In this document: piece by piece, positions 9,829 to 29,789 of the stretch
How positions within the stretch are numbered: position 1 is the first letter of the stretch
Layout: every line of letters starts with the position of its first letter
Assembly: GCF_023008545.1 (NCBI RefSeq)
Contig: NZ_CP095397.1
Location: 2,715,199 to 2,779,198, forward strand
Source of the DNA: Natribaculum luteum
GTDB taxonomy: Archaea > Halobacteriota > Halobacteria > Halobacteriales > Natrialbaceae
Reading direction: 5' to 3'
DNA: 64,000 bases
Program-made: the position numbers and the translations under genes
The notes under the pieces: generated by a model
What the model was told of the DNA's origin: nothing
What the model saw: the letters and a program-made list of their open reading frames with translations, nothing else
Databases searched by the model: none

Positions 9829-9918
9829 CCGTCAGACGGACTACTGTCAGTCATTTCCGGTGCAATCGCAACCGTCCTGCGGTTGCACGGGTAAATCGGT
9901 ACAGCAGACCGTATCAGG
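9829..9918. repeat. Family-B palindromic element, copy B1, flipped. The right-arm sequence ggtacagcagaccgtatcag is the complement of the family left arm.
   Basis: Shares the outer arms (ctgatacggtctgctgtacc / ggtacagcagaccgtatcag) with copies at 14.2, 16.4, 43.1 and 56.6 kb. It has an inner stem gcaaccg/cggttgc. The TGA of the minus-strand cTGAtacgg is the stop codon of the quinone-oxidoreductase-like gene. Confidence 0.7.
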
Positions 9919-10867: not shown

Positions 10868-10920
10868 ACGGACACGAAGAACGGCCGTCGTAAAAACGTC
10901 CGCGAGGCGTGCTCGAGTGG

Positions 10921-11040
10921 GTTCATACTGCCGGACAACACGGTTCAGACATCGATCGCACTCGAGACGCTGTCGTCGCTGACGACAGCCGTCGAGACGC
11001 GATCGAGTAGTCACTGACTGTTGTCCGGTAGTATCAGAAC
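10921..11040. repeat. Family-A nested palindromic element, copy A1, about 120 bp.
   Basis: About 90% identical to 29477..29592 in inverted orientation. Outer arms gttcTGAtactaccggacaac / gttgtccggcagtatgaac. Inner perfect 9-bp inverted repeat gctgtcgtc-agc-gacgacagc. The TGA in cTGAtac is the stop codon of fhs. Confidence 0.75.
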
Positions 11041-12758
11041 AGCCCGGTGATCGTCCCGTCCGCCTCGAGGTCGACGTCCGTCGCGGCGGGGTCAGACGGC
11101 AACCCGGGCATCGTCAGCACGTCGCCGGTGAGCGCGACGAGAAAGCCCGCGCCGGCCGCTGGCCGAATCTCGCGGACGGTGAGCGTCCAGTCGGTCGGGA
11201 CGCCCGTTCGTTCGGGGTCGTCCGACAGCGAGTACGGCGTCTTCGAGAGACAGACCGGCAGCTCCTCGAGTCCGAGCCGTTCGATCCGCTCGAGATCGTC
11301 GGGTGCCGAGTCGACGTACTCGACGTCTCGAGCGCCGTAGACCTCGGTCGCGACGGTCTCGATCGCCTCGCGGACCGTCGCAGAGGAGTCGTACAGCGGC
11401 TGTCCCCGTCCCGGTTCGTCGACGGCGTCGGTCACCAGCTGGGCGAGTTCCGTGCCACCCTCGCCGCCGTCCCGGTGGACCGTCGATTCGGCGGCCGGAA
11501 TCCCCCGCTCGGCGAACGCCTCGAGGACGGCGTCGACCTCCTCGTCTGTATCCTGGGGGAAGCGGTTGAGCGCGACGACGACGGGCATCCCGAGGCGCTC
11601 GAGGATCTCGACGTGGGCGAGCGCGTTCTCGAGGCCGTCCAGGGCGGCCTCGACGTCGGGTTCGGCCAGTCGCTCTGTCTCGCTCGGCCACATCGACAGC
11701 CCCTGGCGTTTCAGCGCGCGGACGGTGACGACCAGCACCGCGGCCTCGGGTGCGAGCCCCGTCTGGCGGGTGACGACGTCGACGAACTTCTCCGCACCGA
11801 GTTCCGAGCCGAACCCGCCCTCGGTGACGAGGTACTCGGCACCCGCGAGTCCGACGCGGTCGGCGATCGCCGTGTTCGTCCCGTGGGCGATGTTGGCGAA
11901 CGGGCCGCCGTGGACGAACGCGGGGACGCCCTCGATCGTCTGGACGAGGTTCGGACGCAACGCGTCGCGAAGCAGAGCGGCGACGGCACCGCCGACCTCG
12001 AGGTCGGCGACCGTGACGGGGTCGCCGTCGCGGTCGTAGGCCACGACGATGCGCTCGAGTCGCGCCTTCAGGTCCGCGTAGTCCTCGGCGAGGCCGAGCG
12101 TCGCCATCAGTTCCGAGGCGGCGGTGATCTGGAAGCCGCCTTCCCGCGGGACGCCGTTTGCCTGCCCGCCGAGACCCAGGACGATCTCCCGGAGTGCGCG
12201 GTCGTTGACGTCGAGCGCTCGAGGCCAGGTGACCGATCGCGAATCGATCGGCGGATCGGCTCCGTGGTGGAGGTGTGCGTCGACCGCGGCGGCGACGAGG
12301 TTGTGAGCCGACGTGAGCGCGTGGATGTCACCGGTGAAGTGGAGGTTGATGTCCTCCATCGGGAGGACCTGCGAGTAGCCGCCGCCGGCAGCGCCACCCT
12401 TGATGCCGAAGACGGGGCCGAGGGAGGGCTCTCGAATCGCGACCGCCGCCGACTCGCCGCGTTTGGCGAGTGCCTGGCCGAGTCCGACCGTCGTGACGGT
12501 CTTTCCCTCGCCCTGGGGCGTCGGCGTCATGGCCGTGACGAGGACGAGGTTCCCCGTCGCTTCGCGCTCGAGCGCCCGCTGGAGCGCGTCGACCGACGGC
12601 TTCGCGACGTGGTCTCCGTAGCGCTCGAGGTCGTCCGGCTCGAACCCAAGCTTCGCTGCGACGTCGGAGATCGGGCTGGGCGCTGCCGCACGTGCGATCT
12701 CGAGGTCGTCCGGTACGCTCTCGTCTTCGTCTTCCGGGTGGGGATCTGGTGGCGACAT
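11034..12758 (-). CDS. fhs: Formate--tetrahydrofolate ligase. The start is at ATG 12758 (MSPPDPHPEDE).
   Basis: Hallmark motifs GEGKTVTTVGLGQAL and PSLGPVFGIKGGAAGGGYSQV, and end-to-end similarity to FTHFS. Confidence 0.95.
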   Translation of the reverse strand: MSPPDPHPEDEDESVPDDLEIARAAAPSPISDVAAKLGFEPDDLERYGDHVAKPSVDALQRALEREATGNLVLVTAMTPTPQGEGKTVTTVGLGQALAKRGESAAVAIREPSLGPVFGIKGGAAGGGYSQVLPMEDINLHFTGDIHALTSAHNLVAAAVDAHLHHGADPPIDSRSVTWPRALDVNDRALREIVLGLGGQANGVPREGGFQITAASELMATLGLAEDYADLKARLERIVVAYDRDGDPVTVADLEVGGAVAALLRDALRPNLVQTIEGVPAFVHGGPFANIAHGTNTAIADRVGLAGAEYLVTEGGFGSELGAEKFVDVVTRQTGLAPEAAVLVVTVRALKRQGLSMWPSETERLAEPDVEAALDGLENALAHVEILERLGMPVVVALNRFPQDTDEEVDAVLEAFAERGIPAAESTVHRDGGEGGTELAQLVTDAVDEPGRGQPLYDSSATVREAIETVATEVYGARDVEYVDSAPDDLERIERLGLEELPVCLSKTPYSLSDDPERTGVPTDWTLTVREIRPAAGAGFLVALTGDVLTMPGLPSDPAATDVDLEADGTITGLF

Positions 12759-12915
12759 ACCCGATCGTACGAGGGCCGGGGACAAACGTTCTGGCTGCCG
12801 TTCTCGTTCGACGGGAACGACGACCGAATCGGCCACGCGGACAGTCGCTTTCGTCGACTCGTGTGAACCCTTTTGGCCGTTCGAGGCGAAGATCGGCTGT
12901 ACAGCGGGTGTAAGT

Positions 12916-13128
12916 ATGGAAAAGAACGTGGGCGGGATCGATCGAACCACACGCATCGTCGTCGGAGCGTTCCTCACTGTCGCCGGAGTCGCCGGACTGG
13001 CCGGCTACTGGGCCGTCGGCATCGCGATCGGTGTCGCAGCGCTTCTGGTCGGAGTGATCCTCGTCGTGACCGGTACGACCCAGAAGTGCCCGATCAACGA
13101 AGCCGCAGGCGTCGACACGACTCGGTGA
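12916..13128 (+). CDS. DUF2892 (YgaP-like) small membrane protein.
   Basis: GGIDRTTRIVVGAFLTVAGVAGL signature followed by two TM helices. 70 aa. Confidence 0.65.
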   Translation: MEKNVGGIDRTTRIVVGAFLTVAGVAGLAGYWAVGIAIGVAALLVGVILVVTGTTQKCPINEAAGVDTTR

Positions 13129-13251
13129 CGGATCGACGGCGCGTCGGCGCTCGAGAGCGCTCGAGACGCACCGAATAGACGTAGTCGGCAGACGGCCAAT
13201 CGAATCGCCGGGGACCACAGATTCTTGCCCGATCGTTGCGAGTGTCCGTGC

Positions 13252-14220
13252 ATGGCCGACGAGTTCGACGTCCTCGTGCTCCGCAAGGGGACGCACGGAA
13301 CGCCAGTCGAGGAGTACGCAGCGGCGATCAGAGAGCGACTGCCCGAGACGGACGTTCGCCTCGCACGGACGCCCGCCGAGGAGCGCGAGGCGATCCGGGA
13401 CGCGCGGTTCGTCACCGGCATGACTCTCGAGGAGGAGCTGCTCGAGACCGCCGCCGACCTCGAGGTCTTCGCGTGTGCCTACGCGGGGACGGGTCACCTC
13501 CCGCTCGAGCGCCTCCGGGAACGGGGCGTCACGGTGACGAACGCCTCGGGCGTCCACGGGCCGAACATGGGCGAGCACGTCCTCGGGTCGATCCTCTCGT
13601 TCACCCGTCGGTTCCACGTGGGCGCGCGCCGACAGCGACGCCGGGAGTGGCGCCACTACCGGGCCCACGAACTCCAGGGATCGACCGTCACCGTGGTCGG
13701 ACTCGGCGCGATCGGGCGGGCGGTCGTCGAGCGCCTCGAGCCCTTCGGCGTGGAGACGATCGGCGTCCGGTACACCCCCGAGAAGGGTGGGCCAACCGAC
13801 GAGGTGGTCGGCTTCGACGACGACGCCGTCCACGACGCGCTCGCACGAACGGATTACCTCGTGCTCGCGTGTCCGCTGACGGACGCGACGCGCGGGTTGA
13901 TCGACCGCGAGGCGTTCGTCACGCTGCCGCCGGAGTCGGTGCTCGTGAACGTCGCTCGCGGCCCCGTCGTCGACACCGACGCACTCGTCGAGGCGCTTCG
14001 GTCGAACTGGATCCGCGGGGCCTCTCTCGACGTCACCGATCCCGAACCGCTGCCCGAAGACCACCCGCTGTGGACGTTCGAGAACGTCCAGATCACGCCA
14101 CACAACGCCGGACACACGCCGAAGTACTACGAACGACTGGCCGACATCGTCGCCGAGAACGTCGACCGGATTCGCGAGACCAGCGAGACGGACGGTCTCG
14201 AAAACCAGGTCCTGCCCTGA
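13252..14220 (+). CDS. D-isomer-specific 2-hydroxyacid dehydrogenase (NAD-binding) family.
   Basis: NAD-binding VVGLGAIGRAVVERL and a catalytic-domain arrangement typical of the D-2-hydroxyacid dehydrogenase family. ATG 13252 gives MADEFDVLVL. Confidence 0.85.
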   Translation: MADEFDVLVLRKGTHGTPVEEYAAAIRERLPETDVRLARTPAEEREAIRDARFVTGMTLEEELLETAADLEVFACAYAGTGHLPLERLRERGVTVTNASGVHGPNMGEHVLGSILSFTRRFHVGARRQRRREWRHYRAHELQGSTVTVVGLGAIGRAVVERLEPFGVETIGVRYTPEKGGPTDEVVGFDDDAVHDALARTDYLVLACPLTDATRGLIDREAFVTLPPESVLVNVARGPVVDTDALVEALRSNWIRGASLDVTDPEPLPEDHPLWTFENVQITPHNAGHTPKYYERLADIVAENVDRIRETSETDGLENQVLP

Positions 14221-14229
14221 CTCGCGGGT

Positions 14230-14317
14230 TCATATCGCCTGCTGTACCTGTTTCCCGGCGCACCCGCAAGCCGTCCGGCGGTTGCCCCAGAACTGACGTA
14301 CAGCAGACGGTATCAGG
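14230..14317. repeat. Family-B palindromic element, copy B2.
   Basis: tcatatcgcctgctgtacctg...cccgcaagccgtccggcggttgcccc...gtacagcagacggtatcagg. It begins 9 nt after the stop of the 2-hydroxyacid dehydrogenase. Confidence 0.7.
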
Positions 14318-14477
14318 CTCCGGTCTCGCTTCCGGCGCGCTCGAGTCGACGCGGGTTTATCACATTCGAGGCCGAACCCTCGGCCAGCATGGATTCACCA
14401 CGAGTTCGTCGCGTCTCGAGGCGACACGAGAGGGCTGCACACGAGAACGACGGCGTCCACCGGGCGGTGACCTCGCG

Positions 14478-14909
14478 ATGACGCTCTCGTTCGACGGGCG
14501 GGTGATCGTCCCCGTCGCCGATCCGGACGACGCCGAACGGACCGCGGCCACGCTCGCACCGAAGATCGAACCGACGGGTACTGCCGTCGTCGTCTACGTC
14601 GTCGAGAAAGCCGGCGGCGGCATCGACAAGGCGTCGGTCGAACAGCGCGAGGGGTACGCCGAGCGGATCTTCGAGCGCGCCCGCCAGCCGCTCGAGGCGG
14701 CGGACGTCCCGGTCGAGACCGAGATTTTGTACGGGACCGACGTCGTGGAGACGATTTTCGACGGGGCGATCGACTGGGACGCGGACGCGGTGGCGTTCGT
14801 ACCGCGACAGAGCAATCGTCTCGTGGAACTGCTGACGGGCGACGTGGCCCGAAAACTGGTCAGGAACGCAGAGATACCCGTCGTCGCTCTCCCGCAGGAC
14901 GGCGAGTGA
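14478..14909 (+). CDS. Universal stress protein (UspA).
   Basis: MTLSFDGRVIVPVADPDD...AVAFVPRQSNRLVELLTGDVARKLVRNAEIPVVAL is the typical Usp fold signature. Confidence 0.8.
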   Translation: MTLSFDGRVIVPVADPDDAERTAATLAPKIEPTGTAVVVYVVEKAGGGIDKASVEQREGYAERIFERARQPLEAADVPVETEILYGTDVVETIFDGAIDWDADAVAFVPRQSNRLVELLTGDVARKLVRNAEIPVVALPQDGE

Positions 14910-14910
14910 G

Positions 14911-15945
14911 CTAGAGGTAGCCCTTCTCGAGCAAGAGTTCGCCGTTCAGGACGCTCGCGCCGGCAGCCCCGCGGATCGTGTTGTGGGCGAGACAGTTGTA
15001 CTGGAGACCGAACGTCGACTCGCGGATGCCGCCGGCGGCGATGGCCATGCCGTCGCCGAGCGTGCGGTCGAGTCGCGGCTGTGGGCGGTCGGGTTCGTCG
15101 AAGACCTCGATGAGCTGGTCGGGCGAGGACGGCAGGTCGATCGAGGGGTACTCCCGCATCGCATCGGCGGCCTCCACGGGAGTGAGTTCGTCTTCGGTCT
15201 CGACGAAGACGTTCTCGAGGTGGCCGTCGATCGTCGGGATGCGGTTACACGAGGCCCCGACCTCGACGTCGTTCAGCTCGAGTTCGGCCCCGTCGAACGT
15301 GCCGAGCAGTTTGCGCGATTCGGTCTCGAGTTTGTCCTCCTCGCCGCCGATGTAGGGGATGGCGTTGTCGATGATCTCCATCGAGGTGACGCCGTCGTAG
15401 CCCGCACCGGAGACTGCCTGCAGGGTGGCGACGTGGACGGTCTCGAGGCCGTACTCGGCGAGGGCGGCGAGCGTGGGGACGAAGGTGATCGTCGAGCAGT
15501 TCGGGTTCTTCACCATCGCGCCGTCCCAGCCGCGTTCGTCGCGCTGGACCTCGAGCAGGTCGATGTGGTCGGCGTTGACCTCGGGGATGACCAGCGGCAC
15601 GTCTTCTGCCATCCGCGCGTTCGAGGAGTTCGAGGAGAGCACGTAGCCAGCCTCACAGAAGCCGGGTTCGACCTCGGCACCGACGCTCGAGGGAAGCGAC
15701 GAGAAGAGCAGATCGACGTCGTCGGGAACCTCGTCGGGATCAGTCGCCGTGACGGTCATCTCGGCGACGTCCTCGGGAATGGGGCTGTCGACGCGCCACT
15801 TGGCCACGTCGCGGTACTGTTCGCCCGCGCTCGAGTCGCTCGCGGTGAGTGCGGCGATCTCGAAGTCGGGGTGTGGGTCGAGGAGTCCGATCAATCGCTG
15901 TCCGACGGCGCCGGTCGCGCCAAGTACGCCAACTCGTACTGCCAT
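14911..15945 (-). CDS. asd: Aspartate-semialdehyde dehydrogenase.
   Basis: MAVRVGVLGATGAVGQRLIGLL (NAD(P)-binding) and the archaeal Asd-type catalytic domain, including the active-site Cys region GASCN. Confidence 0.9.
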   Translation of the reverse strand: MAVRVGVLGATGAVGQRLIGLLDPHPDFEIAALTASDSSAGEQYRDVAKWRVDSPIPEDVAEMTVTATDPDEVPDDVDLLFSSLPSSVGAEVEPGFCEAGYVLSSNSSNARMAEDVPLVIPEVNADHIDLLEVQRDERGWDGAMVKNPNCSTITFVPTLAALAEYGLETVHVATLQAVSGAGYDGVTSMEIIDNAIPYIGGEEDKLETESRKLLGTFDGAELELNDVEVGASCNRIPTIDGHLENVFVETEDELTPVEAADAMREYPSIDLPSSPDQLIEVFDEPDRPQPRLDRTLGDGMAIAAGGIRESTFGLQYNCLAHNTIRGAAGASVLNGELLLEKGYL

Positions 15946-16121
15946 TGACGGCCCTCGGTGACGGTGGTCTAAAACCATTTGGGTCGTGTCACGGTTTGCA
16001 TCGGCCGGAACGCCGCGGTCGGCACTCGCCGGACACGAGGCGGTGGCCGACGCTCGCGATCGGCGTCGACGGGGGACGGCGTCGCAACTCGAGGGACGGA
16101 GAATCGAGACGAGAATCCAGT

Positions 16122-16313
16122 TTACGCCGGAACCTGTGCGCCCTTCTTGCGGGTGACGTAGCCCGCGATCCGGTTGCGAACGCCCTTCGAGTCGATGTTG
16201 GTCAGCTTCTCGACGCTGTCTTTGTTCTGTTCGAAGTCGGTCGTAAACGCGTCCGGGTATCGCTCGAGCAGGATGTTCCCGGTCTTCTTGACGTAGGCCG
16301 GTTTGATTGCCAT
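16122..16313 (-). CDS. rps17e: 30S ribosomal protein S17e.
   Basis: MAIKPAYVKKTGNILLERYPDAFTTDFEQNK is the classic S17e N-terminus. 63 aa. Confidence 0.9.
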   Translation of the reverse strand: MAIKPAYVKKTGNILLERYPDAFTTDFEQNKDSVEKLTNIDSKGVRNRIAGYVTRKKGAQVPA

Positions 16314-16335
16314 ACAGAGTGGTTCCGTCTAGAGG

Positions 16336-16345
16336 CCCTTATAAC
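16336..16345 (-). promoter_or_regulatory. Candidate TATA box (ccTTATAAcg) for rps17e, at about -27 from the start codon.
   Basis: The only AT-rich hexamer in a GC-rich spacer. The spacing suits a leaderless archaeal mRNA. Confidence 0.4.
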
Positions 16346-16375
16346 GCACCATTTCTGCTGATCGACGACCCGGGT

Positions 16376-16462
16376 TCATACGGACCGCTGTAAGTACTTA
16401 CCGCAGCGACCGCCCGACGGGACGCGGTCGCTGCGGAAAATAGTTACAGCAGACCGCATCAG
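16376..16462. repeat. Family-B palindromic element, copy B3.
   Basis: ttcatacggaccgctgtaag ... perfect 13-bp inner stem ccgcagcgaccgc/gcggtcgctgcgg ... ttacagcagaccgcatcag. The minus-strand cTGAtgcgg supplies the stop of the antiporter gene. Confidence 0.75.
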
Positions 16463-17688
16463 TCGTCCGACTGGATCACGCCGAGTGCGGCCGCGATCTG
16501 TCTCGCGAAGCCCGCCTCGACGACGACCGTCACGAGGATGACCAGAAAGACCGTGCCGAGCAGGACCTCCGCACCCGCGGGATCGGAGGGCGGCGTCTCC
16601 GTCTCGAGGCGGATGGCAAAGAGGGTCGCGACCGATGCGGGGACGATCCCCCGAGGCCCGACGAAGCTGATGAACAGCCGTTCGTGGGTCGAGAACCCTC
16701 CACCGGCCGTCGAGACGAAGACGAGCAGCGGGCGAAGCAGCAGCGTCAACACGGCGACGACCGCGAGGCCGGCGACGCCGAGCGCGAGGAGTTCCGAGAA
16801 CTCGAGCAACGCCGCGAGCGTGATGAAGACGAACGAGAGGACGAGCAGCGTCACGTCCTGGTTGAACTGCAGGATGCTCTCCCGGTGGGGGAGTTCGAGG
16901 TTCCCGAGGGTAAAGCCCGCGGTGGCTGCGGCCGCGATGCCGGCCTCCGAGAACACCGAGTCCGCGATCGCAAAGGCGACGACTGCTCCGGCCAGCGCGA
17001 GTAACCGGGCCGTCTGTGGTGCCGCCTGCTCCGGGAGGTCGACCCGCGTGAGGAGATACCAGACGACGCCCGCGATCGCGAGGCCGGTGAGGATTCCCAT
17101 CCCGAGGCGCTGTGCGAACAGGAAGACGTACCCTCTTGGCGCGAGTTCCTGGGCCGTCATCGCCTTGAAGAGGACGATCGCGAGGATCGCCGCGGTGACG
17201 TCGTTGACGATCCCTTCTGTCTCGAGCGTCGTCGCGACCTCCTCGCGGACGGGAACGACCGCGAGGATCGGCGTGATGACCGTCGGCCCGGTCGCGACCA
17301 GCAGCGCGCCGACGAGAAGCGAGACGTCCAGACTCGCCCCGAGCAGGAGCCGGACGGTCAGGGCGGTCCCGACGAACGCCATCGCCGCGCCGACCGTGAT
17401 CAACCACCAGACCGCCCGCGGTGCGTTTCGGACGGTCTCGTGCTCGAGTCGGAACGATCCCTCGAAGACGATGATGGCGACGCTCACCCCGACGATCGTC
17501 GAGAGCGCCTCCCCGAAGGTGTCGGTCGTGATGACGCCGAGTCCCTCGGGGCCGATGGTGACGCCCGCGACGATGAGAAACAGCACGCTGGGGACGCGGT
17601 ACTTCGCGGCGAGAAACTGGGCTGTGACGCCGAATGCGACGATGGCCGCGACGAGCGCGATGAGGTCGAGGTCGACGTGGACGGACAC
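16459..17688 (-). CDS. Na+/H+ (monovalent cation:proton) antiporter, CPA1/NhaP-like.
   Basis: 409-aa polytopic membrane protein with motifs typical of the sodium/hydrogen exchanger family (GPEGLGVI, FEGSFRL). Confidence 0.75.
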   Translation of the reverse strand: MSVHVDLDLIALVAAIVAFGVTAQFLAAKYRVPSVLFLIVAGVTIGPEGLGVITTDTFGEALSTIVGVSVAIIVFEGSFRLEHETVRNAPRAVWWLITVGAAMAFVGTALTVRLLLGASLDVSLLVGALLVATGPTVITPILAVVPVREEVATTLETEGIVNDVTAAILAIVLFKAMTAQELAPRGYVFLFAQRLGMGILTGLAIAGVVWYLLTRVDLPEQAAPQTARLLALAGAVVAFAIADSVFSEAGIAAAATAGFTLGNLELPHRESILQFNQDVTLLVLSFVFITLAALLEFSELLALGVAGLAVVAVLTLLLRPLLVFVSTAGGGFSTHERLFISFVGPRGIVPASVATLFAIRLETETPPSDPAGAEVLLGTVFLVILVTVVVEAGFARQIAAALGVIQSDD

Positions 17689-17900
17689 CGGTTCACCGAC
17701 CCCCTCGACTGCGACGTTCGACGTGGTACTCGTCGGACGAACTGCCGATCCGCCATCGCGAACCGTGCGTCACGGCCGCCCGGCGCTGGCCGGATGTCGC
17801 GACCGACATGGCCCGTGCTACGACACCCACCGACAAAATCCTCATCCCCTTCCGCACGTGGGGGTCCACCTGCAGTCGATCCACCGCGGTCGCGGGAACT

Positions 17901-19307
17901 ATGTACGCGCCGCCCCGACCACACGACGTGGCTCCGATCGAACTCGAGTACGAAGACGGGACGATCCGCGTCGACGGCGGCGACGCACTCGAGGCGATCC
18001 CGTGGCTCGAGGCCGACCAGCGAACGGGAGGCCGTCGCGCGCCGGCGTACCGATACGCCGACCTCCGCGCAACGCTGGACGACAGCGGCCTCGAGTACGT
18101 CGATCGCGTCCTCGACCTCGATTCCCTCTCGGCGCTTCACTCGGCGTACGAACTGCGGTCCTACCAGCGCGAGGCGCTCGACGACTGGCTCGCGACCGAT
18201 CGCTGGGACGGCCGCGAGACCTCGACGCGAGCGCCAGCGGGCGTGCTCGAGTTGCCGACCGGCAGCGGGAAGACGGTCGCCGCGCTGAAGGCGATCGAAC
18301 GGCTCGCCGTGCCGACGCTCGTGGTCGTTCCCACGATCGACCTGCTAGAGCAGTGGGCACGCGAACTCGAGCGGGAGTTTTCGCTCCCGGTGGGACGGTT
18401 CGGCGGCGGCGAACAGCGACGCGAGGCGATCACGGTCTCGACGTACGACTCGGCGTACCTGAAAGCCGACGTCGTCGGCGACCGGTTCGGCTGCGTCGTC
18501 TTCGACGAGGCCCACCACCTCGGCGGCGAGGGCTACCGGGAGATCGCCCGCCTGCTCGCCGCTCCCGCACGGCTGGGTCTCACCGCGACGTTCGAACGCC
18601 CCGACGGTGCACACGAGGTGATCGAGGACGTCGTCGGGCCGCGCTGTCACCGCGTCGCCGTCGACGAACTCGCCGGCGACCACCTCGCCGACTACGACGT
18701 CAAGCGACTCGAGGTGTCGCTGATGCCCGAAGAACGCGAGGAGTACGACCGGAACCAGGAGGTGTTTACGAACTACCTCGCACGGTCGAACCTCCAGCTT
18801 CGAAGCGGCTCGGACTACCGGGAACTGGTCAAACGCTCCGGCTCCGATCCCAGGGCGCGCGAGGCCCTGCTCGCCAAACAGCGCGCCCGCGAGATCGTCT
18901 TCGGCAGCGAGGCGAAAGTCGACGCGCTCGAGGAGATCCTCGACGACCACCGCGACGATCGGACCATCGTCTTCACCGCGTACAACGACCTCGCGTACGA
19001 CGTCGCCGAGCGGTTCCTGATCCCGGCGATCACCCACCAGACGGGGGCGAGCGAGCGCCGAGAGATCTTGGAGCGGTTCCGCGAGGGAACCTATTCGCGC
19101 GTGGTGACCTCGAACGTACTCGACGAGGGCGTCGACGTACCCGACGCCAACGTCGCGGTCGTGCTCTCGGGCAGCGGCAGCGAGCGCGAGTTTACCCAGC
19201 GCCTCGGTCGCATCCTCCGGCCGAAAGCCGACGGCGGCCGCGCCCTGCTGTACGAGGTCGTCAGCGGCGATACCGCCGAGGAACGCGTCGCCGACCGCCG
19301 TCACTGA
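17901..19307 (+). CDS. XPB/Rad25-type SF2 DNA repair helicase.
   Basis: Helicase motif I (LPTGSGKT), motif II (DEAHH), and LTATFERPDG. An N-terminal damage-recognition-like domain is present. A Bax1 gene follows. Confidence 0.85.
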   Translation: MYAPPRPHDVAPIELEYEDGTIRVDGGDALEAIPWLEADQRTGGRRAPAYRYADLRATLDDSGLEYVDRVLDLDSLSALHSAYELRSYQREALDDWLATDRWDGRETSTRAPAGVLELPTGSGKTVAALKAIERLAVPTLVVVPTIDLLEQWARELEREFSLPVGRFGGGEQRREAITVSTYDSAYLKADVVGDRFGCVVFDEAHHLGGEGYREIARLLAAPARLGLTATFERPDGAHEVIEDVVGPRCHRVAVDELAGDHLADYDVKRLEVSLMPEEREEYDRNQEVFTNYLARSNLQLRSGSDYRELVKRSGSDPRAREALLAKQRAREIVFGSEAKVDALEEILDDHRDDRTIVFTAYNDLAYDVAERFLIPAITHQTGASERREILERFREGTYSRVVTSNVLDEGVDVPDANVAVVLSGSGSEREFTQRLGRILRPKADGGRALLYEVVSGDTAEERVADRRH

Positions 19308-19423
19308 TCCGACTGCCGGACTACTCGAGTATCGTGCCGACTGCACCAGCCGCACAGCAACCGTGCTCGTCGAACGGCCGCGTCCGGGTGACTTTTGGCG
19401 ACGTCGCTCCCACCAGTGAGTAG

Positions 19424-20965: not shown

Positions 20966-21066
20966 TCTGACGGCGCGGCCGATCGGCAGCGAGTTCGACT
21001 CGAGCAACCACGACTGGGCCTTTTTGGTCGTTGCCGGTGTACGACGGTCGACGAGGGAGATCTCGA

Positions 21067-21906: not shown

Positions 21907-21916
21907 GGTCTCGCAC

Positions 21917-23182
21917 TCAGCCTTCGTCGATCGAGAGCACGCGACCCGCGGCGACCGTCTGGCCCATGTCGCGAATGGCGAAACTCCCGAGTTCGGGGAT
22001 CTCGCTCGAGGGCTCGACGCTGAGCGGTTTCTGCGGGCGGACGGTCACGATGGCGGCGTCGCCCGACTGGATGAAGTCGGGGTTCTCCTCTTCGACCTCG
22101 CCGCTCGAGGGATCGATCTTCTGGTCGATCGTCTCGAGCGTGCAGGCGACCTGTGCCGTGTGGGCGTGGAAGACCGGCGTGTACCCCGCGGTGATGACCG
22201 AGGGGTGTTGCATGACGACGATCTGGGCCTGGAAGGTCCGTGCCACGGTCGGCGGGTCGTCGGCCGGACCGCAGACGTCGCCGCGACGAATGTCGTCTTT
22301 GCCGATGCCGCGGACGTTGAACCCGACGTTGTCGCCGGGTTCGGCGCGGGGAATCTCCTCGTGGTGCATCTCGATCGTCTTGACCTCGCCGCCGACATCG
22401 CTGGGCTGGAAGGAGACGGTGTCGCCGATTTCCATGACGCCAGTCTCGACCCGCCCGACGGGAACGGTACCGATGCCCGAGATGGTGTAGACGTCCTGGA
22501 TCGGCAAGCGAAGCGGCGCGTCTGTCGGGGGTTCCGTCTCCGGCAGGTCGTTCAGGGCGTCGAGGATCGTCGGCCCGTCGTACCACGGCGTGTTCTCGGA
22601 GAGTTCGGCGACGTTGTCGCCCTCGAACGCCGAGATCGGGATGAAACTCGCGTCCTCGGTGGCGAAACGGACCTGATCGAGCAGGGCCTTGACCTCCTCG
22701 ACGACCTCGCGATAGCGGTCCTCGTCGTAGTCGACGACGTCCATCTTGTTGACGCCGACGATCAGTTCGTCGATGCCGAGCGTCCGTGCCAGGAAGACGT
22801 GCTCCTGGGTCTGGGGTGCGACGCCGTCGTCTGCGGCGACGACGAGGACGGCGTTGTCCGCCTGCGACGCCCCTGTGATCATATTCTTCACGAAGTCGCG
22901 GTGGCCGGGCGTGTCGACGACCGTGAAGTAGTAGACGTCGGTTTCGAACTCCTGGTGGGCGATGTCGATCGTCAGGCCGCGTTCTCGCTCTTCGGCCAGA
23001 TTGTCCATCACGTAGGCGAACTCGAAGCCGCCCTTGCCTTTCTCCTCTGCTTCCTCGCGATGCTGTTCGATGACGTGCTCGGGGATGCTCCCCGTCTCGA
23101 ACAGCAGTCGGCCGACCAGCGTCGACTTTCCGTGGTCGACGTGGCCGATGATCGCCAGGTTCTGGTGTGGTTTATCTACCAT
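21917..23182 (-). CDS. tuf: Translation elongation factor 1-alpha (aEF-1alpha).
   Basis: [27 protein letters not shown]. Near-identical across its length to haloarchaeal EF-1alpha (421 aa). Confidence 0.97.
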
Positions 23183-23270
23183 TTCGATCCCCTCGAGTAC
23201 TATGGTACGTGACACCAGGGCAAAACGCTTGATGGACACCCAACATATTTGAAGGGATTGTCGCGGCCGG

Positions 23271-24164
23271 TTAGGGCTCCCCGTCGGCCATCGGCACGCA
23301 CAACACCGGCACAGAGGCGTTGCGAACGACGTTCTCGGTGACGCTTCCGAGAAGGCGTTGTTTGACGCCGGACCGCCCGTGGGTACCCATAACGACGAGG
23401 TCGACGTCTTCGTCCTCGACGTACGTCAGGATCACCCGCGATGGGGGACCGCTGGCCACCGTTCCCGTGACGCTGACGTCTGCCTCGAGCGCGCGTTCTC
23501 GCACCGTCGCGAGCGCACCCTTCCCCTGTAACTCGAGCGCCTCGAAGATCTCGTCTGCTCCCTCGCCGCTCACCAGCCGGCTCGTGTCGGCCGAGTACAG
23601 CGCGTGGACCATCGCGTCGAACGCGTCCGCCAGCGTGACGCCCCACTCGACTGCGACCGCTGCCGTCTCGCTCCCGTCGGTCGGCAACAGAACGTCGTCG
23701 TAGTCGTAGCCGTCTGCTGGCGTGTCGCCTGCTGCTGGCGGGACCGCGAGTACCGGCGAACTCGTCGTCCGGAGAACGTTCTCGGTGACGCTGCCGAGTA
23801 GGACCCGCTCGAGGCCTGTCCGGCCTTTCGTCCCCATCGCGACGACGTCGACGTCGTGCTCGTCGGCGTACGCGCCGATGATCTCGAACGGAACGCCGCG
23901 CTCGACTGCTGTGGTGGCGTCGACGCCCGCGTCCCGGGCGAGCGTCGCGACCGCGTCGACCGCTCGCTCGGCCTCGCGCTCGAGCGGCGACTGGCCGTCA
24001 CCGTCGAACTCGAGGGCTTCGGCGGCGTGGGTCACGTCGACGACCGAGAGGACGTGGACGTCTGCGTCGACCGTGCTCGCGAGGTCGATCCCCCGCCTCG
24101 CACCGGCGAGTGCGCCCTCGCTCCCGTCGGTGGGGATCAGGACCGACTCGATGGATCGGTTCAT
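23271..24164 (-). CDS. Tandem-domain universal stress protein.
   Basis: Two Usp domains ([16 protein letters not shown]...; [13 protein letters not shown]...). Confidence 0.8.
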
Positions 24165-24238
24165 GTCACGACGGTACGACGTCGACGTACAAGATACTAC
24201 GTGGCGACGTCACGTCGGCCGAACGGCGAGCCGCTCCG

Positions 24239-24781
24239 CTACGTTCGACCGGCGAGGTCGCGCCGTCTCCCTTTCGGTACCAGCGAGCGCAACTCGCCGT
24301 GGAGGTAGAGTCCGACGCCGAGCGGTTCGCGCTCGCCTGCGACCGTGTGGGCGGCGATCAGGTACCCCCAGTCGCCGTCCCACTCGAGGTCCTGGTCCTC
24401 GCCGGCGACGAACCGCCGCGCCTGCTCGCGGGTCAGGTCGATCACGCAGTCGGTCGCGTGTCCGCCAAAGCGCTGGACGAAGTCGGTCGTCGGCTTCCAG
24501 TGTTCCTGGCGCGTCCGCAGGCAGGTCATCCCGAGTGCCTCGAGTTCGACCGGCGTCGGCGACTCGCCCGCGTAGATCCAGATCTTTCCTGCTCCTTTCT
24601 CCCAGAACGTGTGGTCGTCGAAGGTTTCTGGCGGAATGCCGAACCGGTCCGCGAAGTACTCGAGGGTCTCCGCACGGCTCACCCGTCCCTCGACGGTCCG
24701 CTCGTCGGCCGTCGCCGGCAGTCGATCGAACCGCTGGCCGACGTTCTCCTCGAGGTCGCCGTCGCCCGCGTCACCCGACAT
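24239..24781 (-). CDS. RsmF-type methyltransferase C-terminal (PUA-like) domain, encoded as a separate protein.
   Basis: Its start codon overlaps the Sun-family methyltransferase stop as ATGA. The sequence (WEKGAGKIWIYAGESP...LEWDGDWGYLIAAHTVAG) resembles the C-terminal RNA-binding domain normally fused in RsmF-like enzymes. Confidence 0.45.
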   Translation of the reverse strand: MSGDAGDGDLEENVGQRFDRLPATADERTVEGRVSRAETLEYFADRFGIPPETFDDHTFWEKGAGKIWIYAGESPTPVELEALGMTCLRTRQEHWKPTTDFVQRFGGHATDCVIDLTREQARRFVAGEDQDLEWDGDWGYLIAAHTVAGEREPLGVGLYLHGELRSLVPKGRRRDLAGRT

Positions 24782-25689
24782 CAGGCGGTCACCTCCAGTT
24801 TCGCGACGAAGAAGCCGCCCGTGTCGTTGTGGTGTGGGTAGATTCGCATCGCCCGCTCGAGGCTCGAGTCGTACGCCTCGTCGTCCCACTCGGTGAGTCC
24901 GGGCGCGTACTCGAGGTCGGCGTCGGCGTCGACGACGCGACAGTCCTCCTCCTCGAGGACGTAGTCGACGACGGCCTCGTTCTCCTCGGGGGCGAACGTA
25001 CAGGTCGAGTAGACGACGGACCCGCCCTCGCGGGTGGCCTGGACCGCCCGCCGGAGGATCCCCTTCTGGATGCCCGAGACGGACTTGACGTGACCGACGG
25101 ACCAGTCACAGAGCGCGTCGGGGTTCTTCCGGATCGTTCCCTCGCAGGAACACGGCGCGTCGACGAGCGACCGGTCGAACTCGTCGAACGCGAGGGGCTT
25201 CATCGAGAAGTTGCGCGCGTCCTGGTTGGTCACTGCGATCGAGGTCACACCGAGGCGTTCGGCGTTGAACCGCAGCGCCGAGAGTCGCCCGAGGTTGCTG
25301 TCGTTGCCCACGACGGTTCCCCGGTCGTCCATCAGTGCCGCGAGCTGGGTCGTCTTCCCGCCCGGAGCGGCACAGGCGTCCCAGACCCGGTCGCCGGGCT
25401 CGGGGTCGAGGACGACCGGCGGCACCGCCGACACCTCCTCCTGTCCGTGCGTGAACCCGTGGTACGACGCCCAGGTCGACCCCGGCGAGTCGGTCTCGAG
25501 ACGCAGGACCCGCGGGTTCCACGCTGCCTGGTCGTACTCGACGCCCTCCTCGTCCAGCGTGGCCGTCGCCCGCTCGACGCTCGCCTTGATCGTGTTCACG
25601 CGGACGGCGTTGCCGAGCGGTCGCCGACACGCCTCGAGGAAGGCCTCGAAGTCGTCGACGATCGGTCGGTACCGCTCGAGTGGCTCCAT
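24781..25689 (-). CDS. NOL1/NOP2/Sun-family RNA (cytosine-C5)-methyltransferase.
   Basis: SAM-binding motif DACAAPGGKT, DAPCS, and the catalytic Cys in STCT. Confidence 0.85.
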   Translation of the reverse strand: MEPLERYRPIVDDFEAFLEACRRPLGNAVRVNTIKASVERATATLDEEGVEYDQAAWNPRVLRLETDSPGSTWASYHGFTHGQEEVSAVPPVVLDPEPGDRVWDACAAPGGKTTQLAALMDDRGTVVGNDSNLGRLSALRFNAERLGVTSIAVTNQDARNFSMKPLAFDEFDRSLVDAPCSCEGTIRKNPDALCDWSVGHVKSVSGIQKGILRRAVQATREGGSVVYSTCTFAPEENEAVVDYVLEEEDCRVVDADADLEYAPGLTEWDDEAYDSSLERAMRIYPHHNDTGGFFVAKLEVTA

Positions 25690-25951
25690 TGCTCGCCTGT
25701 TCGGTCGCTCGCCGTTTGTGGGTTTCGAAGCGGGGGCGGTCCGACGTCCCAGGAGTAGCGCCCGCGCCGTCGACGGCGTGACCTCGAGAACGGGCACGAG
25801 AGTGGTGACCGGCACCGAACCGAGGCTGGCGACGCGAGACGGTGACTGATGACGTGGCAGGTCGTCTCGTGACCCGTTTCTCGTCGTTTTTCCGGCGTCA
25901 GAACGGATCCTGCCCATTTTTTATCGTGGGACCGCTCCGGGAGCGATAGAG

Positions 25952-27322
25952 ATGTCTACGGAAAGTCACGACGTAGTGGTCATCGGCGGCGGAACCGCCG
26001 GCTGCTTCGCCGCGGCGACCGCTGCCCAGGAAGGGGTCGACGTCGTCCTCCTCGAGCGCAAGACCGAGGAGGAGGCGGGACACATCGCCTGTGGCGACGG
26101 AATCAAGGGCGCGAGTGCGTTTCCCGACGTCGTCGACCGCGACCGGCTCGACGAGGAGGCGTTTACCAACCGGAACATCAGCAGGGCGATCTTCGAGAAT
26201 CCCCAGACCGGCGAGTCGATCGACGTCCCGTTCGACGAGTCCGGCGGCGTCGTCGACCGCTGGACGTACGGGCGGGTGCTCCTCGACGAGGCCGACCGTG
26301 CCGGCGCGGAGATCCACTACGAGACGGTCGTTCAGGACGTCGTCCAGCCCGACGATCGGGTCGAGGGCGTGACGGCGATGCGGAACGGAGAGCCAGTCAC
26401 GTACGAGGCCGACGTCGTCGTCGACGGGGCGGGATCGCTCTCGTTGCTCCAGGACAGGATCGACTTCTCCGGGTCGACGTTCGACACCAACGTCACCTAC
26501 CAGCAGTTCTGCTCTGCCTATCGTGAGATCCTCGAGGTCGACGACCCCGTCGACTGGGACGACGCGCTGGTGTTCAAGCCCACCGAGGAACTGGGCTACC
26601 TCTGGTACTTCCCGCGCTCCTCGACGGAGATCAACGCCGGGCTGGGCTTTCAGATGAACAAGCCGCCGATGAAACTCGTCGAGGACCTCAAACGCGACCT
26701 CGAGACCCGACCCGAGTTCCGGAACGCGACAGTGACGGACAAACTGGGTGCCGCTCTCCCGACCCGGCGGCCCTACGACTCGGCCGTCCATCCGGGGTAC
26801 GTCGCCGTCGGCGACGCCGCAGCCCACGTCAATCCCTGTACCGGCGGCGGGATTCCGGGCGCGGCGAAGGCGGGCCACTGGGCGGCGGAGGTCGCCATCG
26901 AGGCGATCGGCGACGGCGACGTCGGCGAGGCCGCGCTGTGGGAGTACAACCGACGCGTCCAGACCGGCTTCGGCAAGCGCTTCGCCGCGATGGACCTCTA
27001 CAACATTTTCGGCGGCGCTCACGACGTCGACGAACTGGTCTCGGTGATCACCTCGTTGCCCGGCCAGCAACTCGTCGACGCCATCGGGAAACGGGGCACT
27101 GCCTCCATGGGGCTCGGCCTGAAGCTCAAGACGATCCTGAAGACGTTCGGCCACTGGGACGTCCTCTACGAACTCTACAGGGTCCAGAGTCTCGCCGCCG
27201 ATCTCAAAGACGTCTACGACTCCTACCCGGGCGACCCGGCCTACTTCGACGCCTGGCAAAAAGAGCGCGACGCCGTCATGGACCGACTGTACGACGTCAC
27301 GGGTGCGGAGCCGAAGTACTGA
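25952..27322 (+). CDS. Geranylgeranyl reductase family FAD-dependent oxidoreductase (digeranylgeranylglycerophospholipid reductase-like).
   Basis: FAD-binding VVVIGGGTAGCFAA and GD motif. The 456-aa length is typical of haloarchaeal GGR. Confidence 0.8.
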   Translation: MSTESHDVVVIGGGTAGCFAAATAAQEGVDVVLLERKTEEEAGHIACGDGIKGASAFPDVVDRDRLDEEAFTNRNISRAIFENPQTGESIDVPFDESGGVVDRWTYGRVLLDEADRAGAEIHYETVVQDVVQPDDRVEGVTAMRNGEPVTYEADVVVDGAGSLSLLQDRIDFSGSTFDTNVTYQQFCSAYREILEVDDPVDWDDALVFKPTEELGYLWYFPRSSTEINAGLGFQMNKPPMKLVEDLKRDLETRPEFRNATVTDKLGAALPTRRPYDSAVHPGYVAVGDAAAHVNPCTGGGIPGAAKAGHWAAEVAIEAIGDGDVGEAALWEYNRRVQTGFGKRFAAMDLYNIFGGAHDVDELVSVITSLPGQQLVDAIGKRGTASMGLGLKLKTILKTFGHWDVLYELYRVQSLAADLKDVYDSYPGDPAYFDAWQKERDAVMDRLYDVTGAEPKY

Positions 27323-27345
27323 TACTATCTGACAATAGCCAGTAC
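27316..27345. repeat. Short hairpin starting with cTGAtac at the geranylgeranyl reductase stop. It is a minimal family-A/B-like terminus.
   Basis: gtacTGAtactatctgacaatagccagtac, with arms gtactg/cagtac. The TGA is the stop codon of the geranylgeranyl reductase. Confidence 0.5.
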
Positions 27346-27432
27346 GTACTCGAGAGCGACTCGCCCTGTCGGACGGCGAACCGCTGGCCGCGATCCCAAC
27401 CCCTTTTCCCACCGGTCGACTACCCGTCGGCG

Positions 27433-28266
27433 ATGACAGACGAGATCCCCGTCGATCGCTACCCGACAGCCAACGGCATGCCGGTCCTCGGACTCGGCAC
27501 GTGGCAGAACACCGACCCCGAGCAGTGCGCCGAGAGCGTCCAGACCGCACTCGAGGTCGGCTACCGCCACGTCGACACCGCACAGGCCTACGACAACGAG
27601 GAGGCCGTCGGTGACGGACTCGCGGCTGCCGACGTCGATCGCGAGGACGTCTTCCTCGCGACGAAGGTCTGGAACTCGAACCTGGCGTCCGACGACGTCC
27701 TCGAGACGGCGCGGGCGAGTCTCGATCGGCTCGGCGTCGATTACGTCGACCTGCTGTACGTCCACTGGCCGGCGGGTCCGTACGACGCCGAGGAGACGCT
27801 GCCGGCGTTCGAACAGCTGTACGACGAGGGGCTGATCGAACGGGTCGGTGTCAGCAACTTCACGCCCGACCTCCTCGAGGAAGCGGTCGACGTCTGCGAC
27901 GTGCCGATCTTCGCCAACCAGGTCGAGCTACACCCGCTGCACCCTCAGGAGGAGCTTCGCGAGGCGTGCGAGCGCCACGACGTCGAGGTCGTCGCCTACT
28001 CGCCGCTGGCGCGCGGCGAGGTCTTCGACGTGCCCGAGATCCAGGAAATCGCGGCCAAACACGACGCGAGCGAGGCGCAGGTCAGTCTCGCCTGGCTCCG
28101 CGAGAAAGGCATCACTGCGATCCCCAAGGCGACGAGTCAGGCCCACGTCGAGGACAACTGGCGGTCGCTCGACCTCGAGCTAGACGACGAGGATGTCGAG
28201 ATGATCGACGCGATCGACCGCACGGATCGCCAGGTCGATCCGGACTTCGGTCCCTGGAACCGATGA
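27433..28266 (+). CDS. Aldo/keto reductase.
   Basis: LGLGTWQ...GYRHVDTAQAYDNEEAVG...VSNF motifs characteristic of the aldo/keto reductase superfamily. Confidence 0.85.
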   Translation: MTDEIPVDRYPTANGMPVLGLGTWQNTDPEQCAESVQTALEVGYRHVDTAQAYDNEEAVGDGLAAADVDREDVFLATKVWNSNLASDDVLETARASLDRLGVDYVDLLYVHWPAGPYDAEETLPAFEQLYDEGLIERVGVSNFTPDLLEEAVDVCDVPIFANQVELHPLHPQEELREACERHDVEVVAYSPLARGEVFDVPEIQEIAAKHDASEAQVSLAWLREKGITAIPKATSQAHVEDNWRSLDLELDDEDVEMIDAIDRTDRQVDPDFGPWNR

Positions 28267-28342
28267 ACAGTCAGTCGACGTGACTGTCTTCGTGCCGAGA
28301 AAAGCCGGAACGTTAACGGTACGCCGGTGTCACGGGTTCGGT

Positions 28343-29113
28343 ATGGCTACCCGCGCACGCAACAGCGGTGGCATCGTCGGCGCGGTGAAAGTCGACTTGC
28401 AGCGGTTACACGGCGCGTGGATGGAGATCGTTTTCCCTCGCCAGCGTGGCCGCGGCCACTCCGTGATGGGCAAGTGGCGACCCGAGACGCTTCCACAGAA
28501 GATTGGCTACCACTTCTGGAGCGTCCTCGGGACGGTCGGCTTGCTCCTCCTCTACCCGCTGACCGTCATCGGCTTCGCGACCCGCTTTTACGCGGCGAAA
28601 CTCGACTCGACGACGACTCGTCTCGGCATCCTCGGTGTCACGGGTGTCGCACTGCTCGGCTGGGGACTGTTGACGGTCGCCTGGGGGGCGATGTCGTACA
28701 TGGAACAGATCGACATCCCCCTCGACGCGGTCGTCGCGGTCGCGGCGGCCAGCGGCGTCGCGACGGTCGCGACCGCACTCGCCGCGACGTTCTCGAAAGT
28801 CGGCGGCCGGGGCACGTCGGTCGCCCTCGCGTACCCGTTCGCGATGACGGCCCTGTTCCTCCCGCCGGTCGTCGCGGCGCTCGTCACGCCGTCGCTCGAG
28901 GGGTACGTCCTCGAGCCGAGTTACGACCTCGCGGCGTGGTTGCTCGACAACGTGTTGTTCGTCGGCGGGGTCAACGAGTTCCTCCGGACGAACTACACGC
29001 TCGAGGGAGCCGCCTACGCGGGGATGTGGCTCGGCTTCTCGTTCCCGCTGGGCTGGTTCTTCGGCGTCGTCGTCGCGCTGGCGAACCTCGTCAGACCGTC
29101 CGAGCGAGGGTAA
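28343..29113 (+). CDS. Hypothetical polytopic membrane protein. The start is uncertain among ATGs at 28343, 28421 and 28466.
   Basis: At least five hydrophobic helices. I recognise no motif. Confidence 0.4.
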   Translation: MATRARNSGGIVGAVKVDLQRLHGAWMEIVFPRQRGRGHSVMGKWRPETLPQKIGYHFWSVLGTVGLLLLYPLTVIGFATRFYAAKLDSTTTRLGILGVTGVALLGWGLLTVAWGAMSYMEQIDIPLDAVVAVAAASGVATVATALAATFSKVGGRGTSVALAYPFAMTALFLPPVVAALVTPSLEGYVLEPSYDLAAWLLDNVLFVGGVNEFLRTNYTLEGAAYAGMWLGFSFPLGWFFGVVVALANLVRPSERG

Positions 29114-29181
29114 TGGACGGTTTTCCCTATGGACTCTCCGCTGTCGATACCATTAGGTAGGCTACCTCCTAACCTCGAGAT

Positions 29182-29373
29182 ATGGAACTCGACGTAGCCA
29201 AGACGGCCATCGCGTTCGTCGTCGTGATCGGGATCGGCGTCGGTGGCCTCCTCGCCGCGCCGATGATGACCGCCGACACCGTGTTGATGATGGTTGCGCC
29301 GTCGATGATCGTATTCGGGCTGATTATGCTGGGTATCGGCGTCGCACACGGCCAGTACCGCGCGACGCACTGA
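29182..29373 (+). CDS. Small hydrophobic protein of 63 aa.
   Basis: Two TM helices. Support is weak. Confidence 0.3.
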   Translation: MELDVAKTAIAFVVVIGIGVGGLLAAPMMTADTVLMMVAPSMIVFGLIMLGIGVAHGQYRATH

Positions 29374-29476
29374 TTATCCGTCGAACGCGTTCGCGACCGT
29401 CCGTATCGCGTTCGGAACTCCACCGAGCGTTTCTATCCGGACGTACTCGCCGTACGCGTCGGCGATCGCCGCGATC

Positions 29477-29592
29477 CTGTTACTACTGGACAACGGTCAG
29501 TGACTACTCGATCGCGTCTCGCCGTCTGTCGCCGCTGGCGACAGCGTCTCGAGTGCGATCGATGCCTGAACCGTTTTGTCCAGCAGTATGAC
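29477..29592. repeat. Family-A nested palindromic element, copy A2.
   Basis: About 90% identical to the reverse complement of 10921..11040. The terminal TGA is degenerate here (ctgttac). Confidence 0.75.
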
Positions 29593-29789
29593 TGCTCACA
29601 GTCCAGTGGCGTCAGACGGGACGAACTCCGTGGCCGTGGCGTCCTCGTCCCGTTCGTGACCGTTCTCGACGGTTTCGGTCGGCGAAGGGGGAACGACACG
29701 GCCGTCGACACGGCCGTCGACACGACCGACTCGAGACCGCTCTATGCGAAGAGAATCGTCGCTTTCGAACCGGAGGAGTCCAGTTTGGG

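Follow-up and report, generated by a model that had tools for sequence, protein, structure and literature searches.

The question raised by this locus is what kind of sequence occurs twice, once in flipped orientation, as a palindromic element of about 115 bp within a 64,000-nucleotide stretch of Natribaculum luteum DNA (contig NZ_CP095397.1, positions 2,715,199 to 2,779,198; hereafter 'the window', by which the whole of this stretch is meant). The initial annotation described the two copies as a palindromic family (family A, related through its termini to a second, family B), suggested looking for a discrete small RNA, and named a known repeat or a larger segmental duplication as findings that would speak against its reading. 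We argue, at a probability of roughly 0.85, that family A is a miniature inverted-repeat transposable element (MITE) associated with insertion sequences (IS) of the IS630 family: all the sequence-level hallmarks of MITEs that we examined were found in it. As such it is probably ordinary selfish DNA and not a new RNA gene, and no earlier description of it was found in the searchable literature (ISfinder lay outside this search).

A dispersed palindromic element of haloarchaea

The two window copies (10921-11040, on the reverse strand, and 29477-29592) are 89% identical over 115 nt (blastn E = 2e-38), in agreement with the original estimate of about 90%, and their similarity collapses just past both element borders; this abrupt loss of identity speaks against a larger segmental duplication. 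Although only two full copies lie in the window, as would suit a chance similarity or a fragment of such a duplication, this explanation is excluded for all practical purposes by the E-value, by the borders at which identity ends and by the dozens of copies that occupy unrelated loci in many genomes. The latter also bear out the description of family A as a dispersed palindromic repeat family.

By profile searches (nhmmer) and terminus finding we assembled 59 family A copies in which both ends are intact, together with truncated ones, out of at least 10 genomes of haloarchaea, the hosts being mostly Natrialbaceae (Natribaculum, Natrinema, Haloterrigena, Natronorubrum, Natrialba, Natrononativus and Haloarchaeobius). 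The flanks of these copies are unrelated among loci. The genome-wide search that had been suggested for the element was run on plasmid records and representative genomes, and recovered many dispersed copies. Among plasmid records (blastn), family A was found at 26 places in 7 plasmids from 4 genera (Natribaculum, Natronorubrum, Natrialba and Natrononativus), and none of these places is annotated as a repeat or mobile element; phage records yielded no family A match (blastn), and viral contigs scanned with the inverted repeat gave 120 single matches with no element-like paired ends, apparently by chance. Furthermore, a scan of one genome per species with an exact-pattern, degenerate 21-mer from the right end of the element returned 61 loci, 59 of them haloarchaeal and the remaining two chance bacterial matches. 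The haloarchaeal loci derive from Natribaculum breve (at least 20 matches), two Natrinema hispanicum strains, N. limicola, Haloterrigena sp. H1, Haloarchaeobius amylolyticus, Natronorubrum and Natronolimnohabitans, and a hidden Markov model search of the scan loci delivered some 60 copies of full length along with several that are truncated. As only exact right ends could be picked up by the scan, the invariant alignment columns 88-108 are a product of the way in which the copies were retrieved; moreover, the fetched loci do not include the window's own genome, and their best similarity to the window is about 75-76%.

Terminal inverted repeats and a TNA target duplication

When aligned together with their flanks, the copies are conserved from TAC to GTA, which delimits an element of 108 bp (TACTRCCGGACAAC...GTTGTCCGGCAGTA) with 14-nt terminal inverted repeats (TACTRCCGGACAAC, a pattern common to the 59 copies; 13/14 matches between the two repeats of copy 1, given in Table 1). 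The element is non-coding and almost fully palindromic, the only reading frames through it being spurious 'VTTRSRL...' frames. The three bases outside each end form a direct, not an inverted, repeat that is identical in 41/59 copies. Both flanks read TNA in 42 copies, and in 41 of these the middle base agrees (0/100,000 permutations), even though this base is free (TGA, TCA, TTA and TAA all occur, with left and right co-varying). In the reconstructed targets, C precedes the trinucleotide (position -1) in 26/41 cases and G follows it (position +1) in 22/41, where T never occurs; the preferred insertion site is C-TNA-G.

It follows that the termini initially proposed (cTGATAC...GTATGA) are a target duplication (TGA) plus the terminal TAC: the terminal TAC/GTA does belong to the element, whereas the 'cTGA...TGA' part is the 3-bp target-site duplication. 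The duplication is thus TNA and not the TA dinucleotide of Stowaway-like elements. A TA-only duplication would need a TNA-TA-TNA target with matching middle bases, and was rejected since it is contradicted by the single TGA at empty or uninterrupted sites.

On either strand, each window copy folds into a long hairpin in three tiers, with an outer, a middle and an inner stem (-60 to -68 kcal/mol; z = -6 to -8.6; 0/200 shuffles as stable). The outer arms, middle stem and perfect 9-bp inner hairpin described earlier hold for copy 1, while in copy 2 the inner hairpin is 8 bp long. A structural alignment, which had also been proposed as a check, uncovered two compensatory changes between the window copies, one in the inner hairpin (GTC/GAC to GCC/GGC) and one in the outer arm (CCGG/CCGG to CTGG/CCAG).

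Evidence for insertion and spread

Mobility was read from sequence comparison, with empty sites that come from two pairs of fetched loci (L044/L009 and L019/L044) and not from the window copies. The N. hispanicum copy in L044 has no counterpart at the orthologous position in Haloterrigena sp. H1 (L009; flanks 79% identical, junction approximate), and a sister family with TACTGCCGGACAGAAC ends provides a clean empty site with a single TGA (L044 ...GTGTGA-GAGATG... versus L019 ...GTGA-element-TGA-GGTG...). Nested insertions were also observed: in L043 the internal TGA of a family A copy has taken up a 78-bp element from another sister family, with TGA on both sides of it, and in L035 a family-B-type element interrupts another family A copy. 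Moreover, a 78-bp variant of family A itself, which has lost exactly 30 bp between two GCGTCTCGA direct repeats (inner hairpin included), was found 11 times in two genera (N. breve and N. hispanicum), and 8 of these copies have matching duplications. The spread of this deletion variant indicates that the inner hairpin is not needed for spread.

Short, intergenic and strongly palindromic as it is, family A could also belong with the REP/BIME-like elements or with the palindromic elements derived from IS200/IS605 (PATEs); a Y1 (HUH) transposase would then mobilise it in single-stranded form through the recognition of subterminal hairpins. PATEs are abundant in haloarchaea (PMC3119063). However, PATEs and IS605-type elements have neither terminal inverted repeats nor a target duplication (PMC3119063), whereas family A has both, the duplication being a symmetric 3-bp one, and shows no one-sided conserved flanking tetranucleotide. 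We consider an origin of this kind highly improbable.

An IS630-family element as the candidate partner

When a 340-kb portion of the N. breve plasmid CP095391.1 was compared with itself (self-megablast), independently of the family A inverted-repeat sequence, a 1076-bp repeat of 99.9% identity came to light. Its true limits are those of a 1070-bp element (TACTGTCAGCCAAAAA...CTTATGTCCGTGAGTA; ends TACTGTCAGCCAAAAA / TACTCACGGACATAAG), one copy of which is flanked by TCA/TCA and another by TGA/TGA. The element contains two overlapping open reading frames (ORFs), the first with HTH_33/HTH_32 and the second with DDE_3 (Pfam, E = 1.4e-32), and both match the NCBIfam model transpos_IS630 (104.6 and 149 bits against a curated cut-off of 100); an A7G slippery site that joins the frames and a DD34E spacing were read by eye from the sequence. 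Its transposase is found in 61 haloarchaeal plasmids (tblastn), and the TNA flanks are concordant in 7/10 IS copies (Natribaculum, Haloarcula, Halorubrum, Halovenus and Natrinema). By manual comparison, both IS ends agree with the family A inverted repeat at 12/16 positions each, and a Natrononativus family A copy reaches 14/16 to one end. Furthermore, N. breve harbors at least 12 places matching the IS630 transposase alongside its family A pattern matches. On account of the matching ends, the matching duplication and this co-residence in N. breve, we pair family A with the 1070-bp haloarchaeal IS630 clade, which would be its most likely driver. When TNA-TAC...GTA-TNA pairs spaced 300-5000 bp apart were sought by a generic scan, nothing real emerged from the 66 loci around family A copies or from the initial 300 kb of the N. 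breve plasmid; the scan missed IS copies that were present because the two IS ends match each other poorly, and these were recovered by self-megablast.

IS5-family and PIF/Harbinger-like transposases are the classical makers of 3-bp TNA/TWA duplications, and a Tourist-like MITE moved by an IS5-family (IS1031/IS427-type) or PIF/Harbinger-like transposase was our first guess on the strength of the TNA duplication. IS5-family transposases are indeed annotated beside some of the fetched IS630 copies. Nevertheless, a non-exhaustive search of about 1 Mb of fetched haloarchaeal DNA found no IS5-type coding element with TAC... ends or TNA flanks, and the sole autonomous element found with TACT... ends and TNA duplications belongs to the IS630 family. 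This partner was dropped, and we hold it to be very unlikely.

Points against the IS630 attribution and the question of a structured RNA

Several findings weigh against the reading of family A as an IS630-associated MITE. The perfect duplication is missing in 18/59 copies; no IS630 transposase was found in the window or in 66 loci around family A copies, and the co-occurrence of family A with its candidate partner was seen in N. breve only. The inverted repeats agree only in part with those of this partner (12/16), and the internal sequence of the MITE bears no relation to the IS. The classical duplication of IS630/Tc1-mariner elements is TA and not TNA (PMC7386202), and a second haloarchaeal IS630 clade (ISNpe3/ISNma7-like; about 42% amino-acid identity to the partner, TAGTAACCGTTAGA ends) looks TA-flanked, with TA on both flanks in 4/4 copies (L194, L195, L197 and L198). 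The stems add to these points. In 43 full-length copies scored on a three-helix model (RNAalifold alone gave the inner two helices, and the outer one was added by hand), 92% of cells are paired, as compared to 25-48% when the partners are slid. Changes on both stem sides occur in 10 pairs (39 cells versus 14.8 in shuffles, 0/500) and G-U pairs exceed A-C mismatches (110 versus 34 cells, or 67 versus 34 without one invariant pair), in counts that ignore inheritance within subfamilies and for an outer helix that is the inverted repeat itself. Such an excess of double-sided changes and of G-U is not obviously predicted by pure selfish-DNA decay.

As regards the partner, a closer, unsampled relative of the IS630 clade may be the true one, and the two IS630 clades seem to differ, within the same organisms, in the length of their duplication (TA versus TNA). 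As regards the stems, the excess of changes could stem from master-copy inheritance, from the correction of imperfect palindromes at replication, or from weak RNA/DNA hairpin selection.

A further observation that bears on a possible RNA is the position of the copies relative to genes: 15 of the 59 copies have their duplication precisely on the stop codon of a long ORF with biased GC at third codon positions. These stop-codon copies are entered from the left end in 8 cases and from the right end in 7, and as two orthologous pairs are included, they represent about 13 independent events. The lack of an orientation bias at gene 3' ends argues against a strand-specific RNA role.

It could be held that family A is a functional structured RNA, or has turned into one (a small RNA, or a 3'-untranslated-region stabiliser or terminator hairpin), whose palindrome is under RNA-level selection. 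The very stable folds, the high proportion of paired cells, the double-sided changes in excess of shuffles, the two compensatory changes between the window copies, the surplus of G-U over A-C and the quarter or so of copies that lie exactly at gene 3' ends would all suit such a role. Set against them are the random orientation to the upstream gene, an inner hairpin that is dispensable for spread, and target duplications, empty sites and nested insertions that show the copies to arise by transposition and not by descent of a gene; in addition, the control for covariation ignores the kinship of the copies, and most of the changed cells are inherited within subfamilies. Searches of Rfam gave 0 matches at the gathering threshold over the whole window and 0 at E <= 1 on copy 1, so that no Rfam family explains the copies. 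We regard the structured-RNA explanation as quite unlikely, and the discrete small RNA of about 110 nt contemplated in the initial annotation is not supported (target duplications, empty sites, the 8 versus 7 orientation count and the spread of the 78-bp variant).

It is likewise unlikely, albeit a shade less so, that some MITE copies were co-opted, with the hairpin on a stop codon serving as a 3'-end RNA stabiliser or terminator and its stems under selection; if true, this would account for the surplus of changes on both stem sides and for that of G-U over A-C mismatches. For family A as an IS630-associated MITE, we infer that the internal hairpin is without host function.

Related MITE families

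The window also holds five copies of family B (Table 1), the ends of which begin with TAC (TACGGTCTGCTGTAC; 2/10 ends degenerate) and the TNA flanks of which are concordant in 5/5 copies (TCA in three, TGA in two). Directly after one of them, a solo family-A-type end (TGA-TACTGTCGGCCGA) stands at 43228-43240, and may be what is left of another element that went into this TGA. All told, eight TNA-type MITE copies or remnants of families A and B lie within the window. The element sequence common to the two families is limited to the terminal TAC/GTA. Two further families (C and D) with TNA flanks, one of 78 bp (TACTRYCGGACGTAAC ends) and one of 108 bp (TACTGCCGGACAGAAC ends), have inverted repeats nearer to that of family A than family B's are, and no inverted repeat comes closer to one end of the IS630 element than that of the 78-bp family, which is found in N. 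breve (13/16). The proposal of a superfamily with different cores therefore stands in so far as several MITE families share ends and the TNA signature, and the relation of family A to family B through its ends is upheld. To judge by these sequence features, the 'superfamily' would consist of MITE families served by one kind of transposase.

Table 1. Positions of MITEs and their target duplications in the window and in fetched loci (L numbers are locus handles)
Feature	Coordinates	Strand	Details
Family A, target-site duplication of copy 1	10923..10925	-	TCA on +, TGA on -
Family A MITE copy 1, 108 bp	10926..11033	-	Inverted repeats TACTACCGGACAAC / TACTGCCGGACAAC; nhmmer E = 3e-44
Family A, second target duplication of copy 1	11034..11036	-	TGA stop codon of formate-tetrahydrofolate ligase gene 11034..12977(-)
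Family-A-like degenerate left half	about 27323..27371	+	TGA at 27320-27322, then TACTATCTGACAATAGCCAGT; 76% over 58 nt; nhmmer E = 2e-5
Family A, left target duplication of copy 2, decayed	29478..29480	+	TGT, one mismatch to TGA
Family A MITE copy 2, 108 bp, intergenic	29481..29588	+	nhmmer E = 8e-41
Family A, right target duplication of copy 2	29589..29591	+	TGA
Family B MITE	9835..9913		TCA/TCA; right TCA (9914-9916) is the stop codon of dehydrogenase gene 9914..10867(-)
Family B MITE, 80 bp	14233..14312		TCA/TCA duplication
Family B MITE, 80 bp	16379..16458		TCA/TCA duplication
Family B MITE, 80 bp	43145..43224		TGA/TGA duplication; solo family-A-type end at 43228 follows
Family B MITE, 81 bp	56593..56673		TGA/TGA duplication
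78-bp TACTRYCGGACGTAAC family	L002 25747-25824; L018 4902-4979; L025 3400-3477; L187 2603-2680; L189 1693-1770, 28816-28893; L192 12226-12303, 37951-38028		Natribaculum breve
106-108-bp MITE family	L019 1091-1198; L064 4620-4726; L033 3558-3663; L015 2624-2798		TACTGCCGGACAGAAC ends, different core

Neighbouring genes and other repeats

The TGA on which copy 1 landed is the stop of a 657-codon formate-tetrahydrofolate ligase ORF (ending in ...TITGLF before the stop; Pfam FTHFS E = 8.5e-233). On its other side, copy 1 lies 58 nt upstream of the start of a dehydrogenase gene, which encodes a zinc-type alcohol dehydrogenase/quinone oxidoreductase and probably starts at ATG 10867 (9914..10867(-)), and which has a MITE on each side (family A copy 1 upstream and a family B copy at its stop codon). 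As listed, the ORF 9914..11014(-) runs 49 codons beyond this probable start and into copy 1. The earlier remark that both copies yield the same pseudo-peptide (VTTRSRLDGCRQRRQRLECDRCLNR... in copy 1, VTTRSRLAVCRRWRQRLECDRCLNR... in copy 2), which falsely extends the N-terminus of the dehydrogenase, is confirmed. No database record of this dehydrogenase was found with either start. Copy 2 is situated about 200 nt past the 3' end of a PAPS-reductase-like gene (29790..30761(-)), and the ORF that abuts it (29596..30609), for which no family match was found, is probably spurious. The degenerate family-A-like half at 27323-27371 sits within ORF 26938..28266(+) as listed. In Natronorubrum aibiense (NZ_CP045490.1, 310501-310615) a family A copy underlies an annotated 'hypothetical protein', probably a MITE pseudo-peptide called as a gene.

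A repeat finder reported two other pairs in the window, a 158-nt inverted one (41305-41462 versus 59183-59340, 72% complementary) and a 292-nt direct one (49452-49743 versus 50271-50562, 74%, 819 nt apart), both of which are probably paralogous or internally duplicated coding sequence. On plasmid CP095391.1, a 2.2-kb repeat (166722-168959 in L002 and 140424-143732 in L189) begins with TTAC-AGCGATAGCGAGGCGAAAGCCCACCCGTTTACGG and resembles at its start the 5' end of ISNph18, an IS605-type element (Table S9, PMC3119063); its L189 copy is split by the IS630 element at 141871-142940. The plasmid also holds a 1243-bp repeat (133832-135074 and 319029-320271) with a GC-rich hairpin at its end, and one of its copies abuts a MITE end.

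Comparison with known systems

Among the MITEs associated with IS630/Tc1-mariner elements are the 107-bp RUP of Streptococcus pneumoniae (attributed to IS630-Spn1), the cyanobacterial Nezha and the plant Stowaway. Family A resembles them in its size (about 100 bp), its lack of coding capacity, its potential to form a whole-element hairpin, its IS630-like inverted repeats, its T..A-containing duplicated target, and its intergenic and multicopy occurrence. It differs from them in its haloarchaeal hosts, its unrelated interior and its 3-bp duplication (TNA, within C-TNA-G, versus the canonical TA); the TNA rather than TA duplication is its notable feature among IS630-associated MITEs. The candidate partner in turn resembles the IS630 family (NF033545, which includes the haloarchaeal ISNpe3 and ISNma7) in its length of about 1.07 kb, its helix-turn-helix and DDE_3 domains, its ORFA/ORFB arrangement with A7G and its short inverted repeats, but departs from ISNpe3 and ISNma7, the TAGTAACCGTTAGA ends of which are flanked by TA, in its TNA duplication (7/10 copies). 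The target of IS630 is CTAG, which the T..A symmetry of the partner's target recalls.

A precedent for departure from the 2-bp TA within the IS630-Tc1-mariner group is given by the Fot and Fot-like (pogo) elements, which have TAA/TAAA duplications (PMC7386202). Yet Fot elements are eukaryotic, belong to other transposase lineages and have a duplication fixed as TAA, in contrast to TNA with its free middle base. Within the haloarchaea, MITEs have been described by Pfeiffer, Dyall-Smith and colleagues as HqIRS in Haloquadratum (PMC3119063) and as MITEHsal1-14 in Halobacterium (PMC7002104), and family A fits the haloarchaeal definition of a MITE (inverted repeats homologous to a resident transposon's, the target duplication length of that transposon and no transposase). 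The catalogued families, where assigned, are of the ISH4, ISH8, ISH9 and ISH11 types, with duplications mostly of 7-9 bp or longer (PMC3119063, PMC7002104). No IS630-type MITE is listed in these two papers, and no duplication is given for the IS630-type elements of Haloquadratum (PMC3119063, Table S8). Searches of the literature with the inverted-repeat strings of families A and B returned unrelated primer matches only, and no description of a TNA duplication by IS630 elements was found in the same searchable literature.

Proposed mechanism and implications

On the assumption that the IS630 attribution is accurate, a DDE transposase of the IS630/Tc1-mariner type, acting in trans, would excise the family A element and paste it into a TNA trinucleotide (context C-TNA-G), which would then be duplicated on both sides; the mobilising enzyme would come from the IS630 clade described here or from a close relative. 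Since TGA and TAA are among the TNA targets and the target is doubled on insertion, an element that lands precisely on a stop codon would do no harm and would leave the gene intact, as in window copy 1. The 3-bp TNA duplication implies a 3-nt rather than a 2-nt staggered cut, and a clade of archaeal IS630 elements, together with at least four MITE families, appears to use a 3-bp C-TNA-G target and not the canonical TA. Masking family A and its sister families would clean gene calls in Natrialbaceae genomes. Moreover, the capacity to land on stop codons without harm may help these elements to persist in compact, GC-rich genomes in which TNA sites are scarce.

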